From positions 1 through 40,904 of IMG/VR virus record IMGVR_UViG_2687453163_000002: 40,904 nt of DNA. One strand, 5' to 3'. Shown piece after piece: positions 6,999 to 40,524 of the stretch. Each line of letters starts with the position of its first letter. Positions within the stretch are counted from its first letter, which is position 1. This stretch comes from a virus (Duplodnaviria > Heunggongvirae > Uroviricota > Caudoviricetes). Both the position numbers and the translations under genes were made by a program. The notes under the pieces are model-generated. The model was not told where the DNA came from. It saw only the letters and a program-made list of their open reading frames with translations, and searched no databases.

Positions 6999-7343
6999 CT
7001 ATGACCATTTTTTATTTGGATTTCGTTGGTGAGCGTGATTAACAACTCTGTGCATTACATCCTCATATTTTTCATCTTCAATTTTTTCGACATCGCGAGG
7101 AAATGGTGTTGCTAATGCTTTGTCAACTTTGTCCATTGGGTCTTCATTAATCTTATATTCAGGGCCATCATCTATAGCATTAAATCCAGGTGTTACACCG
7201 TTTTTTAATGCATATGCTATCCTTTTTTCCCATCTCGCTATTCTCCTCCTGTCTCGAGATGTAAGACCTCTATCAGATACTTTTCTGTTTTGTCCGCGGT
7301 CAGGATTAACATAAATAGTCTTTTTCACCATAAGCATACTCAA
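6999..7343 (-). CDS. hypothetical basic protein immediately downstream of the N-like gene
   Basis: 114-aa ORF whose start overlaps the N-like stop; Arg/Lys-rich N-terminus, acidic C-terminus; no family recognised. Confidence 0.5.
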   Translation of the reverse strand: MSMLMVKKTIYVNPDRGQNRKVSDRGLTSRDRRRIARWEKRIAYALKNGVTPGFNAIDDGPEYKINEDPMDKVDKALATPFPRDVEKIEDEKYEDVMHRVVNHAHQRNPNKKWS

Positions 7344-7645
7344 TAAGCACCGTACGGTAGTTTACTGTACAATTTTATTTTTTGGACTGCATGTATTTTG
7401 TTTCCTAATGGGTTTGAATCTTTGTAATAAATACTTCTATTTTTTCGAACGACTTCTTCTTTCTTCTTGCAGCAAAGGCATCCTAGCGATGCTGCTTTGT
7501 CTGCTCTGACGCAACCAGAGAGCTTTAGCGCAATTTTTCGCGCCAGTGCTTCATTACTGCGTCGCTCGGCAATAAGTTCTGCTCTGCGAGCTTTGTAGCG
7601 GCTTTTTGCCGTACCTTTGGATTCTTTCCAGACAATGGTTACCAT
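7340..7645 (-). CDS. N-like transcription antiterminator (P22 gene 24 analogue)
   Basis: Start at MVTIVW preceded by AAGGAG; arginine-rich motif GTAKSRYKARRAELIAERR; first gene downstream of the PL/nutL region. Confidence 0.7.
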   Translation of the reverse strand: MVTIVWKESKGTAKSRYKARRAELIAERRSNEALARKIALKLSGCVRADKAASLGCLCCKKKEEVVRKNRSIYYKDSNPLGNKIHAVQKIKLYSKLPYGAY

Positions 7646-7755
7646 GATGGTCTCCTTTAAGTGGCTTTGGCGCATGACGCGTCGAGGTGCTTATCTTCTC
7701 GATCGCTGTCTTGCAGCTGCAATTCGCGCCATCCCCAAAACCACTCAAGTTCTGG

Positions 7756-14287: not shown

Positions 14288-14472
14288 ACGCCACAATTCA
14301 AACGATACCAGAGCTTCTTATCCAGACACGAGGAAATCAGACCGAAGTGGCGAGGATGCTTTCCTGCGCAAGAGGAACAGTGCTCAAGTACAACCGAGAC
14401 AGCAAAGGCGAGCGTCACGTAATAGTTAACGGCGTCCTGATGGTCAAACAGGGCAAGAGGGGAAGACGATGA
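14284..14472 (+). CDS. ninH: NinH-like protein
   Basis: 62-aa ORF with GNQTEVARMLSCARGTVLKY (HTH), resembling lambda NinH GNQTEVARRLKCSRGTVRKY. Confidence 0.7.
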   Translation: MNATIQTIPELLIQTRGNQTEVARMLSCARGTVLKYNRDSKGERHVIVNGVLMVKQGKRGRR

Positions 14473-14987
14473 GCATAAGAGAACTAAACCTCACCAAAGA
14501 ACAGCACGATTGGCTGAATGGCTGGCTTGAACTGTGGGGTGCATGGGTTTACTCAGGTCGCCTGGAAAAGCGCATGAGCAGCGTAATAGCGAAGTTCATG
14601 GAGAGCGTAGAGCCGGGAAGAGTTATGACAAGGCCAATGTGTAATGATGATGATGGAATGTTGATTTCTCAGGTCGTCGATTCCGTCATGTACATTGACA
14701 AGAAAGCCTTTGGCATCCTCCTCAGCTACTACGCTCATGGTTCATCTAAGCGAGCAATTGCATCCTACTATCACGCGACTGCAAAGCCACGCAAGATGTG
14801 TGGGCGTGGTGGTGAGGGATGGAGAAAACCTTCACTGGCAACCTGTAGAAATGAAATTGACGACATCCTGAAAGCGTCGTTATTTGTTTTGTACCAACCA
14901 ATGCAAAATGCTTTCAAAATGCGTAAACGTGTTGAGAAAGTTAAGCATGTTGCCGTTAAAAGCCTTGACATGCAATTAGCCATTTAG
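14469..14987 (+). CDS. late-gene antiterminator Q (QuuD / phage 82-type)
   Basis: 172-aa ORF with WGAW...RPMCNDDDGMLISQ...LLSYYAHG resembling recalled DLP12 QuuD; directly upstream of a strong promoter, tRNAs and the lysis genes. Confidence 0.7.
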   Translation: MSIRELNLTKEQHDWLNGWLELWGAWVYSGRLEKRMSSVIAKFMESVEPGRVMTRPMCNDDDGMLISQVVDSVMYIDKKAFGILLSYYAHGSSKRAIASYYHATAKPRKMCGRGGEGWRKPSLATCRNEIDDILKASLFVLYQPMQNAFKMRKRVEKVKHVAVKSLDMQLAI

Positions 14988-14994
14988 CCATAAT
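14965..14994 (+). promoter_or_regulatory. late promoter PR'-like (TTGACA-N18-CATAAT) overlapping the 3' end of Q
   Basis: TTGACA at 14965-14970 and CATAAT at 14989-14994; Q stop codon at 14985-14987. Confidence 0.5.
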
Positions 14995-15002
14995 TAGAGG
15001 GT

Positions 15003-15047
15003 AAGCTGCCGTTAGTGACTCTTAAGTTGCAACGGTGGCTTTTTTTA
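15003..15047 (+). terminator. putative early terminator (tR'-like) just downstream of the late promoter
   Basis: Imperfect hairpin AGCTGCCGTT ... AACGGTGGCT followed by TTTTTTT. Confidence 0.4.
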
Positions 15048-15050
15048 TTT

Positions 15051-15125
15051 GGGTCAGTCGTATAAAGGTCATTACGGAAGGCTGTTAACCTTCTTATCGT
15101 GGTTCGAGTCCACGCTGTCCCGCCA
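15051..15125 (+). tRNA. tRNA-like gene, anticodon GUU (Asn) by manual fold; one acceptor-stem mismatch
   Basis: Acceptor GGGTCAG/CTGTCCC (T:T at 4:69), anticodon stem GAAGG/CCTTC with loop CTGTTAA, T-arm CGTGG-TTCGAGT-CCACG, CCA end. Confidence 0.45.
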
Positions 15126-15130
15126 AACAT

Positions 15131-15206
15131 GCTGGTTTAGCTCCAATGGTAGAGCAGTCGCCTTGTAAGCGAATGGGTAGCGGTTCAAGTCCGTTAACCA
15201 GCACCA
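15131..15206 (+). tRNA. tRNA-Thr-like gene, anticodon UGU, by manual fold
   Basis: Perfect acceptor GCTGGTT/AACCAGC, D-stem GCTC/GAGC, anticodon loop CTTGTAA, T-arm AGCGG-TTCAAGT-CCGTT, discriminator A plus CCA. Confidence 0.7.
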
Positions 15207-15293
15207 TAACTGAGCCGTAGCCACTGGCTATCCTGAATTCATCAGTGATAGTTACGCTGCGGCCTTCTACACATGACCTTCGTGAAAGTGGGT

Positions 15294-15328
15294 GGCAGGA
15301 GGTCGCGCTAACAACCTCCTGCCGTTTT
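15294..15328 (+). terminator. rho-independent terminator downstream of the tRNA genes
   Basis: Perfect 10-bp stem GGCAGGAGGT / ACCTCCTGCC followed by GTTTT. Confidence 0.6.
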
Positions 15329-15448
15329 GCCCGTGCATATCGGTCACGAACAAATCTGATTACTCAACACAGTAGCCTGGATTTGTTCTATCAGTAACCG
15401 ACCATATTCCTAATTAAATAGAGCAAATCCCCTTATTGGGGGTAAGAC

Positions 15449-15772
15449 ATGAAGATGCCAGAAAAAAATGACCTGTTAGCCGCCATTCTCGCGGCAAAGG
15501 AACAAGGCATCGGGGCAATCCTTGCGTTTGCAATGGCGTACCTTCGCGGCAGATATAATGGCGGTGCGTTTACAAAAACAGTAATCGACGCAACGATGTG
15601 CGCCATTATCGCCTGGTTCATTCGTGACCTTCTCGACTTCGCCGGACTAAGTAGCAATCTCGCTTATATAACGAGCGTGTTTATCGGCTACATCGGTACT
15701 GACTCGATTGGTTCGCTTATCAAACGCTTCGCTGCTAAAAAAGCCGGAGTAGAAGATGGTGGAAATCAATAA
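15449..15772 (+). CDS. S: holin (lambda S-type, dual-start MKMPEK)
   Basis: 107-aa [37 protein letters not shown]..., near-identical to recalled lambda S. Confidence 0.9.
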
Positions 15773-16232
15773 TCAACGTAAGGCGTTCCTCGATATGCTG
15801 GCGTGGTCAGAGGGAACTGATAACGGACGTCAAAAAACCAGAAATCATGGTTATGACGTCATTGTTGGCGGAGAGCTATTCACTGATTACTCTGATCACC
15901 CTCGCAAACTTGTCACGCTAAATCCGAAACTCAAATCAACAGCCGCCGGACGCTACCAGCTTCTTTCCCGTTGGTGGGATGCCTACCGTAAGCAGCTTGG
16001 CCTGAAAGACTTCTCTCCGAAAAGCCAGGACGCTGTGGCACTGCAACAGATTAAAGAGCGTGGCGCTTTACCGATGATTGATCGCGGTGATATTCGTCAG
16101 GCTATCGACCGTTGCAGCAATATCTGGGCTTCACTGCCTGGCGCTGGTTATGGTCAGTTCGAGCATAAGGCTGACAGCCTGATTGCAAAATTCAAAGAGG
16201 CAGGCGGAACGGTCAGAGAGATTGAGGTATGA
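15756..16232 (+). CDS. R: endolysin (lambda R-type lytic transglycosylase)
   Basis: 158-aa [42 protein letters not shown]..., matching recalled lambda R. Confidence 0.9.
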
Positions 16233-16666
16233 GCAAAGTAACCGCGATTATCTCCGCTCTGGTTATCTGCATCATCGTTTGCCTGTCATGGGCTGTTAAT
16301 CACTACCGTGATAACGCCATCGCCTACAAAGAGCAGCGCGATAAGGCCGCATCCACAATTGCTGACATGCAGAAGCGTCAACGTGATGTAGCAGAACTCG
16401 ATGCCAGATATACAAAGGAGCTTGCTGATGCTAACGCGACTATCGAAAGTCTCCGTGCTGATGTTTCTGCTGGGCGTAAGCGCCTGCAAGTCGCCGCCAC
16501 CTGTGCAAAGTCAACGACCGGAGCCAGCAGCATGGGCGATGGAGAAAGCCCAAGACTTACAGCAGATGCTGAACTCAATTATTACCGTCTACGAAGCGGA
16601 ATCGACAGGATAACCGCGCAGGTTAACTACCTGCAGGAGTACATCAGGACGCAATGCCTTCGATGA
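16229..16666 (+). CDS. Rz: i-spanin Rz
   Basis: 145-aa ORF with N-terminal TM segment [21 protein letters not shown], resembling recalled lambda Rz. Confidence 0.85.
16428..16613 (+). CDS. Rz1: o-spanin Rz1 (lipoprotein) embedded in the +1 frame of Rz
   Basis: [30 protein letters not shown] signal peptide with lipobox and Cys, then proline-rich [13 protein letters not shown]. Confidence 0.7.
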
Positions 16667-33616: not shown

Positions 33617-33877
33617 TTATCTACTGTCTTTTTTGTATATCTTCTTGAGCGTATCAAAGACAATTTTCTTAACCATATCAGATTGTTGTTCTGCCATACG
33701 CTCTGCATCGTCAATGTAAACTGATGCAGAGTTTTGTTTATCCAGTGATTCTTCAATCGCTGCAATTATCTCTGAGTTCAGAGACCTGTTATTCATCTTC
33801 GCACGCTGCTTAATTTTCGCGTGGAGTTCATGCGGAAGTCTCAAGTGAAACTGCGCCTCGTCGTATTTGCTGTACAT
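33617..33877 (-). CDS. mnt: Mnt-like ribbon-helix-helix repressor (orphan)
   Basis: FHLRLPHELHAKIKQRAKMNNRSLNSEIIAAIEESL...DAERMAEQQSDMVKKIVFDTLKKIYKK resembles recalled P22 Mnt; start chosen at MYSKYD (GAGG 8 nt upstream). Confidence 0.7.
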   Translation of the reverse strand: MYSKYDEAQFHLRLPHELHAKIKQRAKMNNRSLNSEIIAAIEESLDKQNSASVYIDDAERMAEQQSDMVKKIVFDTLKKIYKKDSR

Positions 33878-34008
33878 CCTTGATGCCTCACCAATTGGGT
33901 GGAATGGCATCGTAACTTACTGGATAAATACTCAATAGTACCATTTCGGTATGCAATCACATCATGGTTGCATCATATCATTCGTCTGGAGCAATGAAAT
34001 GTCAGATA

Positions 34009-34509
34009 TCACCTACTCAACAGATGGTCAGCAACCATGTTTGCTGCCTTATAAGCTATAGCCGCTTCATCAATGGTGTTGAATCTCCCAAGGGTTATGT
34101 TTTTACCTGAGACATTTATCTGAGCTTGCCATTGATTTCTTGCTTGACAGAAAGTTACCCCCTTGATTCCAGCATTACTATTTCGAGGTCCGACATTTAA
34201 TGCATTTACGACTCTGCTGACATCCCTAAGGTTTGAGATTGCGTTATTTCTTCTGTTTCTATCAATGTGGTCAATCTCTTGTTTGGGCCATTCGCCATAT
34301 ACATACAGCCAGGCAAGTCTATGTGCAAAATATCTTACGCCATCAATATTAATTGCGTTATATCCATAAGAAATTGTGCCAGCAACTTTCCCAACAGCAC
34401 CTCTGGCGCTTAATTTCTTTTTCCAAGTGAAAATTCCTGTTTCTTTATTGTAATCGAGAACTTCCATAAGGCGCTCACGAGTTACTACCTCGTGACGTCT
34501 CTTACTCAT
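34009..34509 (-). CDS. HNH endonuclease with AP2-like DNA-binding domain
   Basis: HNH motif [20 protein letters not shown] and AP2-like [43 protein letters not shown]; start at MSKRRHEV with GGAG RBS; AT-rich. Confidence 0.7.
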
Positions 34510-39154: not shown

Positions 39155-39218
39155 ATTCGTAATGCGAAGGTCGTAGGTTCGACTCCTATTATCGGCACCA
39201 TTTAAATCAATAAGTTAC
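39155..39218 (+). repeat. attR: attR core: 64-bp direct repeat of the tRNA-Thr 3' region
   Basis: Exact copy of 145-208; not a complete tRNA (5' half absent). Confidence 0.85.
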
Positions 39219-39705: not shown

Positions 39706-40524
39706 TTAAGCAGCCATCTGATGATATTTTTCCCTGAAGGCTGCCGGGGAGATATTCCCCAGACGAGAGTGACGACGCTGACGATTGTAGAAAATCTCAA
39801 TGTATTCCCGTATTACTGAGATGGCTTCATCCCGGTTATTAAAACGATAGTGGCTCAGGCTCTCATTTTTCAGCGTTCCCCAGAAGCTTTCCATCGGAGC
39901 GTTGTCGTAACAGTTACCTTTACGCGACATTGATGTTTTCAGACCAGACTGCTCCTGTATGACCCGGTAATCGTATGCGCAGTACTGTGAACCTCGATCA
40001 GAGTGGTGGATTAGCCCGGCAGGTGGGCGCTGGCTCCTGAGCGCCATAAACAGGGCTTTACCTGTCAGCTCTTTTGTCATGCGCTCTCCCATGGCGTAGC
40101 CGACAATTTCGCACGTATAAACATCTTTGATGCCAGCGAGGTACAACCATCCCTCCTGTGTGGCAACATACGTCAGGTCCGCCACCCAGACCTGATTTGG
40201 TGCTGTAGGAGCGAACGTCTGGTTCAGCAGATTTGGCGCAACTGGCAGATTGTGGTTCGGGTTCGTAGTCGCTCTGAACTTGCGTTTCTGCTTACAGCGT
40301 AGCCTTAGCTCCTTACGAAGACGTGCCAGTCGGTCACGACCAACGATGATGCCATTCTCTGCCAGCTCCGTCTGGAGCCGCCGGGTTCCATATGTTTCGC
40401 GAGTGCGGATATGTGCCACCTTAATCTCCAGTTTTAGCCGCTCATCACTTTGTTTTCTGTCTGAGGGTTCATGCTGTACCCAGTTGTAATAACCGCTCCT
40501 GGATACACCAAATACCTGACACAT
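39706..40524 (-). CDS. IS3-family transposase OrfB (DDE integrase core)
   Basis: 272-aa ORF with DDE-type core (WVADLTY..., HSDRGSQY..., NAPMESFWGTLK). Confidence 0.85.
   Translation of the reverse strand: MCQVFGVSRSGYYNWVQHEPSDRKQSDERLKLEIKVAHIRTRETYGTRRLQTELAENGIIVGRDRLARLRKELRLRCKQKRKFRATTNPNHNLPVAPNLLNQTFAPTAPNQVWVADLTYVATQEGWLYLAGIKDVYTCEIVGYAMGERMTKELTGKALFMALRSQRPPAGLIHHSDRGSQYCAYDYRVIQEQSGLKTSMSRKGNCYDNAPMESFWGTLKNESLSHYRFNNRDEAISVIREYIEIFYNRQRRHSRLGNISPAAFREKYHQMAA

Follow-up and report, generated by a model that had tools for sequence, protein, structure and literature searches.

Two transfer RNA (tRNA) genes, one for tRNA-Asn(GUU) and one for tRNA-Thr(UGU), are located in the late leader of a P22/Sf6-like prophage in IMG/VR record IMGVR_UViG_2687453163_000002, between the gene for the late antiterminator Q and the lysis genes. 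The whole stretch of 40,904 nucleotides (nt) was analyzed and is referred to as the window; all coordinates are those of the window. On balance we favor the explanation that these are functional tRNA genes forming an optional late-leader cassette of a 21/Sf6-type lambdoid prophage, and that the cassette would chiefly raise the decoding capacity available during late gene expression. The tRNA pair is already known, with annotations in the records of phage 21, Sf6 and BTP1, among other phages. What is new is only its match to two host tRNAs that are cut by the PARIS nuclease. As gene calls the two tRNAs are routine, and their possible importance lies in their function.

Identification and structure of the tRNA genes

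ARAGORN calls three tRNA genes in the window, Asn(GTT), Thr(TGT) and Thr(CGT). The first two form the cassette:

15051-15125, + strand: tRNA-Asn, called by ARAGORN; anticodon GTT at 15084-15086, discriminator G73 at 15122, CCA encoded
15126-15130, + strand: inter-tRNA spacer of 5 nt, AACAT, read from the sequence
15131-15206, + strand: tRNA-Thr, called by ARAGORN; anticodon TGT at 15164-15166, G1-C72, C2-G71, discriminator A73, CCA encoded

The initial annotation had proposed, from manual folding, two cloverleaf sequences with the anticodons GUU (Asn) and UGU (Thr). ARAGORN and Rfam each call both genes and make the same assignments, and the two sequences are real tRNA genes. Against the Rfam model RF00005, for which the gathering score is 29 bits, tRNA-Asn scores 55.3 bits (E=2e-9) and tRNA-Thr scores 61.5 bits (E=4e-11), where the E-values are for the whole window. 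Both alignments span the complete model, and the minimum-free-energy fold of each tRNA is a cloverleaf. A permissive Rfam scan of 14900-15460 gave no RNA family besides the two tRNAs.

Both tRNAs have an acceptor stem of 7 base pairs (bp), an anticodon loop of 7 nt in which position 33 is U and position 37 a purine, G18-G19, and a T loop with GTTCRA, and they deviate from the usual structure at a few positions. The T:T mismatch that had been noticed in the acceptor stem of the first gene is present as U4:U69 (15054 and 15118), and the Rfam alignment places a second mismatch of tRNA-Asn, U13:U22, in the D stem. In tRNA-Thr the Rfam alignment gives a G27:A43 mismatch, position 14 is a C where an A is near-universal, and the D loop contains the unusual run C14-A15-A16 (15144-15146). 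Asparaginyl-tRNA synthetase (AsnRS) recognizes the G34-U35-U36 anticodon and G73, and threonyl-tRNA synthetase (ThrRS) recognizes G1-C72, C2-G71, G35 and U36. All of these identity elements can be read from the sequence of the respective tRNA, and both genes very probably encode functional phage tRNAs.

The 176 bp that cover both tRNAs are 100% identical in coliphage 21 (AJ237660). A segment of 551 bp around the tRNAs is 96-98% identical in Shigella phage Sf6 (97.5%), the Salmonella phages BTP1, SPN9CC and Oslo, and the coliphages HF4s and CurroJimenez, with values of 97-98% for Sf6, BTP1, HF4s and CurroJimenez, and tRNA-Asn and tRNA-Thr are annotated at the same position in most of these phage records. 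Matches were also found in 369 of 5,426 complete E. coli genomes, with both tRNAs annotated by PGAP in the records listed. The genome paper on phage L treats the tRNAs at this location in P22-like phages and cites the Asn and Thr pair of Sf6 (PMC8022706). Phage 21, Sf6, BTP1 and other P22-like and lambdoid phages thus have the same genes in the same slot between Q/pR'/tR' and the lysis genes, with nothing substantial that is different. In the window, in distinction from phage 21, Sf6 and BTP1, the cassette is linked to an S-R-Rz lysis module of the lambda type, and the prophage that carries it, at thrW, is probably defective.

Organization of the late leader

The cassette is on the late-gene strand between Q/pR'/tR' and S, the first late gene, in agreement with the initial placement of the tRNAs between Q and the lysis cassette. 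The surrounding features are as follows (ORF, open reading frame):

14469-14987, + strand: late antiterminator gene Q of the phage 21 type; Pfam Phage_antitermQ, E=1.3e-25; 81% identity to phage 21 Q
14965-14994, + strand: late promoter pR'; TTGACA, 18-nt spacer, CATAAT; 11 of 12 consensus positions
15001-15050, + strand: short late leader containing the qut region and the terminator tR'; hairpin 15005-15039, U7 at 15040-15046, AUUU to 15050
15207-15448, + strand: lambda-type late leader; near base-for-base alignment with the lambda segment directly upstream of S
15449-15772, + strand: lambda-type holin/antiholin gene S, first gene of the lysis cassette; from the ORF list and the annotation of the Sf6 and lambda homologues
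15756-16232, + strand: lysis gene R; from the ORF list and the Sf6/lambda annotations
16229-16666, + strand: lysis gene Rz; from the ORF list and the Sf6/lambda annotations

The intrinsic terminator tR' lies between pR' and the tRNAs, and its U-run directly precedes tRNA-Asn. The predicted fold energy is -21.1 kcal/mol (z = -3.8), and the hairpin is unchanged in all six aligned phages. In the Sf6 record the counterpart of the promoter is annotated as 'P R' putative late promoter', and qut and t R' are annotated at the corresponding site. The phage 21 record contains a 50-nt 'aRNA' that corresponds to 15001-15050 of the window, with its end 1 nt ahead of the first tRNA. On the other side of the cassette, the end of tRNA-Thr is the exact junction with the lambda-type leader, and the two tRNAs stand in place of a non-tRNA segment of ~170 bp that follows tR' in lambda. 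Two leader hairpins, 15214-15263 and 15294-15323, each fold better than 200 of 200 shuffled sequences. The second is a G+C-rich hairpin of 10 bp followed by GUUUUG and is common to phage lambda.

These results modify the earlier description of the tRNAs as lying between the late promoter and a strong terminator. The promoter is upstream and a G+C-rich hairpin is downstream, but tR', between the promoter and the tRNAs, had been missed, and the consensus terminator scan did not pick out the downstream hairpin. Two other identifications were considered and rejected. The hairpin at 15294-15323 is not the lambda tR', as the alignment puts it further down the lambda leader. The pR' leader is not the regulatory small RNA StxS, as StxS belongs to another Q type in which the pR'-tR' interval is 258 nt.

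A promoter scan gave no strong match besides pR', and no separate tRNA promoter was found; because tRNA-Asn follows directly on the U-run of tR', there is no room for one. RNA polymerase would start at pR', at about 15001, and in the absence of Q would stop at tR' (~15046-15050), one base before tRNA-Asn. With Q, transcription would read through tR' into tRNA-Asn and tRNA-Thr, continue along the lambda-type leader and then enter the lysis and virion genes. Since the tRNAs follow tR' and appear to have no promoter of their own, we infer that they would be transcribed mainly by Q-dependent read-through, with some leak. The tRNAs would be excised by host RNase P and 3' processing enzymes, with the CCA ends already encoded, and would be charged by host AsnRS and ThrRS. 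The expected benefit is late decoding capacity, above all for the Thr codons ACA and ACU and more weakly for the Asn codons. The arrangement differs from that of the Stx2a phage of strain Sakai, which has another Q type and in which the tRNAs appear to have a promoter of their own, located between tR' and stx2AB (PMC7547250).

Conservation and expression

The cassette was aligned in 61 sequences, comprising 60 IMG/VR contigs and the window, and diversity was compared in 44 sequences, IMG/VR contigs plus the window, that share the lambda-type leader. In these 44 sequences the nucleotide diversity is 0.008 in the tRNAs and 0.033 in the adjacent leader, which is ~4x lower in the tRNAs, and 13 of 151 sites are variable in the tRNAs as opposed to 48 of 242 in the leader (Fisher p = 0.0026). 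Three contigs have a compensatory change in the acceptor stem of tRNA-Thr, from G5-C68 to U5-A68. Positions 15 and 48 of tRNA-Thr also covary, with A15:U48 in the window and G15:C48 in the homologues of N4, P1 and Cyrano. The spacer between the tRNAs is polymorphic at 15128, where 33 of the 61 sequences have C and 28 have T. These patterns suggest that the tRNA structure is kept by selection; there is little variation, and the evidence is supportive rather than conclusive.

Expression of homologous genes has been studied in the Salmonella phage BTP1. In the RNA sequencing study of the BTP1 lysogen, the authors excluded both tRNA genes when listing genes with more than 100 transcripts per million, and the lytic operon was described as starting directly after the tRNAs (PMC7067206). 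Setting the tRNAs aside from this list implies that they are highly expressed and does not show that their expression depends on Q. The phage L genome paper calls the mode of expression of the tRNAs, and their excision from the late mRNA, unknown (PMC8022706).

Proposed role in codon supply

It had been suggested in the initial annotation that the tRNAs supplement the codon usage of the late genes. Codon use in the late genes (crude ORF calls, 5,938 codons) was compared to that in 42 E. coli K-12 genes (14,790 codons). The frequencies per 1000 codons are given below:

ACA (Thr): late 18.4, host 5.4, ratio 3.4
ACU (Thr): late 18.0, host 9.0, ratio 2.0
ACC (Thr): late 10.8, host 26.5, ratio 0.41
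AAU (Asn): late 23.4, host 13.8, ratio 1.7
AAC (Asn): late 24.1, host 23.8, ratio 1.0 (1.01)

The excess of ACA in the late genes ranks second of 61 codons in absolute terms and third by ratio, and the share of ACA among the Thr codons differs between late and host genes with p = 8e-17. ACC is the most depleted codon in the late genes. The two Asn codons together are enriched 1.28x (p = 0.001). The host has a single tRNA-Thr(UGU) gene, thrU, whose product has cmo5U34 and reads ACA, ACU and ACG. As ACA and ACU are used far more by the phage and are served in the host by this single gene, the benefit would be greatest for Thr. The suggestion remains plausible, with the 3.4x excess of ACA in its favor and a poor match for Asn.

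For most of the other tRNAs that related phages have in this slot, the codons read are likewise in excess in the late genes of the window. Gly-UCC reads GGA, which is enriched 2.6x, ileZ (Ile) reads AUA, which is enriched 3.1x, and AGA and AGG, the codons read by the Arg tRNAs of Stx phages, are enriched ~6x. The same codon argument is made in the phage L genome paper (PMC8022706). Supply of codons, or of decoding capacity in general, is to our judgment the most likely role of the cassette, with slightly more in its favor than against it.

Several points weigh against a functional cassette that serves late decoding. The codon comparison itself rests on crude ORF calls and only 42 host genes. 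The codon-supply case for Asn is weak, as AAC is not enriched (ratio 1.01) and E. coli K-12 has four tRNA-Asn genes of its own. UUA, the codon of the tRNA-Leu(UAA) that occupies the slot in phage L, is not enriched either, with a ratio of 0.81. The tRNA-Asn gene has two stem mismatches, and U4:U69 is left unrepaired in nearly all of the 61 sequences: 58 have T, two have C, which is still a mismatch, and one has G, which would form a wobble pair. About 40 of 118 related contigs (see below) have the same Q-type terminator and the lambda-type leader without any tRNA, and the cassette is therefore dispensable. The prophage is probably defective and unable to make virions. A literature search found no experiment on the cassette that shows charging or an effect on fitness.

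Other explanations of the cassette

Two explanations make no use of decoding, and both are unlikely. The tRNAs could serve as punctuation for RNA processing, in which case cleavage by RNase P and at the 3' ends would free the lysis mRNA from the qut/tR' leader and set its stability or translation, and decoding would be incidental. The position of the genes fits this, as the terminator U-run leads straight into tRNA-Asn and the lambda-type leader begins exactly where tRNA-Thr ends, and the open question of excision raised in the phage L paper (PMC8022706) leaves room for it. Processing alone would not need the anticodon loops and synthetase identity elements that are conserved in both tRNAs. 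Phages with the same terminator and downstream leader do without any tRNA, and the second position of the cassette is occupied by different tRNA species in different phages. We regard this explanation as very improbable.

The tRNAs could also be neutral hitch-hikers or decaying relics that were passed on with a Q-pR'-tR' module of the phage 21 type and are without function today. The two stem mismatches of tRNA-Asn and the dispensability of the cassette would be expected of such relics, and signs of decay are seen elsewhere: tRNA-Thr is decayed or chimeric in JLK-2012 and Salfasec13b, two contigs have fusions of Asn and Gly tRNAs, one contig has an Asn gene with a GAT anticodon, and Stx2 phages keep only a 24-nt stub of tRNA-Asn. 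A relic would not be expected to show a diversity ~4x below that of the flanking leader, a compensatory stem change or the covariation of 15:48 in tRNA-Thr, and the homologous genes of BTP1 appear to be highly expressed in lysogens (PMC7067206). The sequence is also identical in phages with different promoter and lysis modules. The tRNA-Asn in particular is the same in phage 21, Sf6, BTP1, JLK-2012 and Salfasec13b and stays constant where the promoters and lysis modules change from phage to phage, in contrast to the variable second position of the cassette. We regard the relic explanation as improbable.

A possible role in defense against PARIS

Escape from tRNA-targeting defenses had also been suggested in the initial annotation and remains plausible. 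In a more specific form it is a serious rival explanation, which we consider possible, if doubtful: the cassette would be a counter-defense that keeps late translation going in PARIS-positive cells. A recent study by Belukhina et al. (2025) determined that the host tRNAs Lys(UUU), Thr(UGU) and Asn(GUU) are targets of the PARIS nuclease AriB, which cleaves after nucleotide 40 and before nucleotide 41, beside U36-A-A-U39 (PMC12409363). Mutants of tRNA-Lys were used to map the determinants of cleavage: cleavage by AriB is abolished when U39 is changed to A, inhibited by the change of A41 to C and impaired by that of U16 to C (PMC12409363). The Lys, Thr and Asn tRNAs of phage T5 jointly neutralize PARIS, and the T5 tRNA-Lys is required for escape (PMC12409363). 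PARIS also restricts lambda (Rousset et al. 2022, PMC9122126), which has no tRNAs at the corresponding position. The anticodons of the cassette are exactly Thr(UGU) and Asn(GUU), both of which are AriB targets. The sequences of positions 36-41 are as follows:

E. coli host: Thr UAAUCA, Asn UAAUCC
Window: Thr UAAGCG, Asn UAACCU
T5: Thr UAAGCA, Asn UAAGUU
N4 and Cyrano: Thr UAAGCA, Asn UAACCA
P1-like: Thr UAAGCA, Asn UAAUCA

The tRNA-Thr of the window has A16 (U16 in host thrU), G39 and G41 and so differs at all three positions that affect the cleavage of tRNA-Lys by AriB, while tRNA-Asn has A16, C39 and U41 and has lost U39. The phage 21-family tRNA-Asn is only 59-65% identical to any other Asn tRNA that was compared, including host asnT, and has no close copy among them. 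The pair Asn(GUU) and Thr(UGU) recurs in P1-like phages, N4, Cyrano and T5. T5 shares two of its three PARIS-neutralizing anticodons with the window, its tRNA-Thr has the same change of U39 to G, and its tRNA-Asn, like that of the window, lacks U39. The T5 tRNAs are 62-66% identical to those of the window, and T5 is a virulent phage with 23 tRNAs, whereas the cassette belongs to a temperate lambdoid phage with two and no tRNA-Lys. P1-like phages, N4 and Cyrano have the same two anticodons close by and in the same order. The genes are adjacent in the P1-like phage JL22 and in Cyrano, and a tRNA-Ser lies between them in N4. The tRNA-Thr of these phages is homologous to that of the window (82-88% identity), but the tRNA-Asn is 59-65% identical and the genomic context is different.

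It is tempting to extend this to a specific proposal, that 21/Sf6-type lambdoid and P22-like temperate phages carry the Asn and Thr cassette as a dedicated means of countering Toprim tRNases of the PARIS type. The cassette would supply AriB-resistant copies of two target tRNAs of AriB and would be expressed only with Q. We consider this proposal rather unlikely. The determinants of AriB were mapped on tRNA-Lys and differences at these positions have a high expectation by chance, so that the match of the substitutions is weak evidence; loss of U39 is statistically unremarkable for tRNAs that are 60-70% identical to those of the host. No tRNA-Lys(UUU) was found by ARAGORN in the window, nor is one present in the 118 related cassettes. 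The host-like sequence UAAUCA is retained in the tRNA-Thr variant of JLK-2012, and UAAUCA is also found in the tRNA-Asn of P1. The identity of the tRNAs is confounded as well, since tRNAs that read ANN codons are expected from the codon demand of an A+T-richer phage. In the literature no paper was found that brings up AriB in connection with Sf6, HK620, P22-like phages or phage 21, PARIS is absent from the BASEL paper on CurroJimenez, and no experimental test was found of why small temperate lambdoid phages carry just Asn and Thr.

Other nucleases were considered. HepS of Gifsy-1 also cuts tRNA-Thr but is unlikely to be relevant, as it cuts in an anticodon loop that is identical in the phage and host tRNAs and is triggered by siphovirus tail-tip proteins, whereas the prophage has P22-like virion genes. 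Self-immunity, in which the prophage would carry a tRNA nuclease that its own tRNAs resist, was examined by PADLOC, PHROGs and Pfam scans of the accessory ORFs, and no known tRNA-targeting system was found in them.

If the cassette were a dedicated countermeasure, the recurrence of one pair of anticodons in P1, N4, Cyrano and T5 would have an explanation. If it protects at all, counter-defense by tRNAs would reach beyond large virulent phages such as T5 into common prophages, and this would help to explain the exchange of tRNA cassettes at this hotspot, including the ileZ-argN-argO cassette upstream of the toxin genes in Stx phages.

Exchange of tRNA genes at the cassette site

The IMG/VR contigs were searched with the invariant 21-type tR' hairpin as an anchor, and 118 usable contigs were obtained. 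The contents of the slot are as follows:

64 contigs: Asn and Thr
6 contigs: Asn, a tRNA-Thr variant not called by ARAGORN, and Gly(TCC) (JLK-2012 type)
2 contigs: Asn alone called
3 contigs: an ileZ-like tRNA
1 contig: a tRNA-Asn gene with the anticodon GAT
42 contigs: no called tRNA, including 2 with an Asn/Gly fusion

The copy of tRNA-Asn with the GAT (Ile) anticodon differs by a single T to A change and two other substitutions; an anticodon switch, decay and a sequencing error are all conceivable. In JLK-2012 (L004, 1591-1744) the 5' half of tRNA-Thr is phage-like and the 3' half is like host thrU, and it is followed by Gly(TCC), tciA and tciB as in P1. The Gly(TCC) tRNA is presumably nearly identical to host glyT. 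The sequence of this cassette suggests recombination with the host thrU-tyrU-glyT operon. In the two contigs with an Asn/Gly fusion (L059 and L064), the tRNAs are joined at the T-loop sequence GGTTCGA that they have in common.

The Stx2a phage WGPS6 (L134, 1211-1236) has an identical 21-type tR' and the first 24 nt of tRNA-Asn, followed by unrelated DNA, ileZ-argN-argO and stx2A. Because this stub remains, it appears that the Stx tRNA cassette displaced an ancestral Asn/Thr cassette. The ileZ-argN-argO cluster upstream of stx is likewise located downstream of Q/pR'/tR' and upstream of the late genes, and both it and the Asn/Thr pair have classically been explained by the supply of codons that are rare in the host, but the tRNA species are different.

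In contig L129 (11802-12010) and ~23 similar IMG/VR contigs, the slot is occupied by a segment of ~200 nt with a long hairpin, in common with the lambda leader, at its start and a tRNA-like acceptor stem with T arm (GCCGGTTCGATTCCGGC...CGCCAC) at its end. The Rfam match is limited to the T arm, and the element is called by ARAGORN at relaxed thresholds only. It may represent a tRNA that has degenerated or a tRNA-like RNA not yet described.

The prophage and other features of the window

The window contains a P22/Sf6-like prophage with an HK022-like early region (~97% identical to HK022) and Sf6-like virion genes. The P22 att core ATGCGAAGGTCGTAGGTTCGACT is found at 152-174 inside the host gene thrW and again at 39162-39184, and the two copies bound a prophage of ~39 kb integrated at thrW. 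The tRNA-Thr(CGU) encoded by thrW is itself a minor target of AriB. The prophage was described above as probably defective because an insertion element splits the P22-type portal gene. Several accessory ORFs lie between the lysis and terminase genes (17011-18777). The features are listed below:

115-190: host thrW, tRNA-Thr(CGT), called by ARAGORN
205-1365: tyrosine integrase
6999-7337: Nun-like transcription termination factor of the HK022 type
7340-7675: N-like antiterminator ORF, adjoining the Nun-like ORF
17011-17496: MUG113/T5orf172 (GIY-YIG-like) protein
18289-18777: HslV-like peptidase homologue
20655-21587 and 22948-24081: P22-type portal gene in two ORFs, split by an insert of ~1.3 kb
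22375-22740, - strand: IS3-family transposase ORF (HTH_Tnp_1) within the portal insert
33617-34509, - strand: Arc-like repressor ORF and HNH endonuclease ORF, directly before the tailspike gene
39706-40524: insertion-element transposase with an rve domain, just outside the right att site

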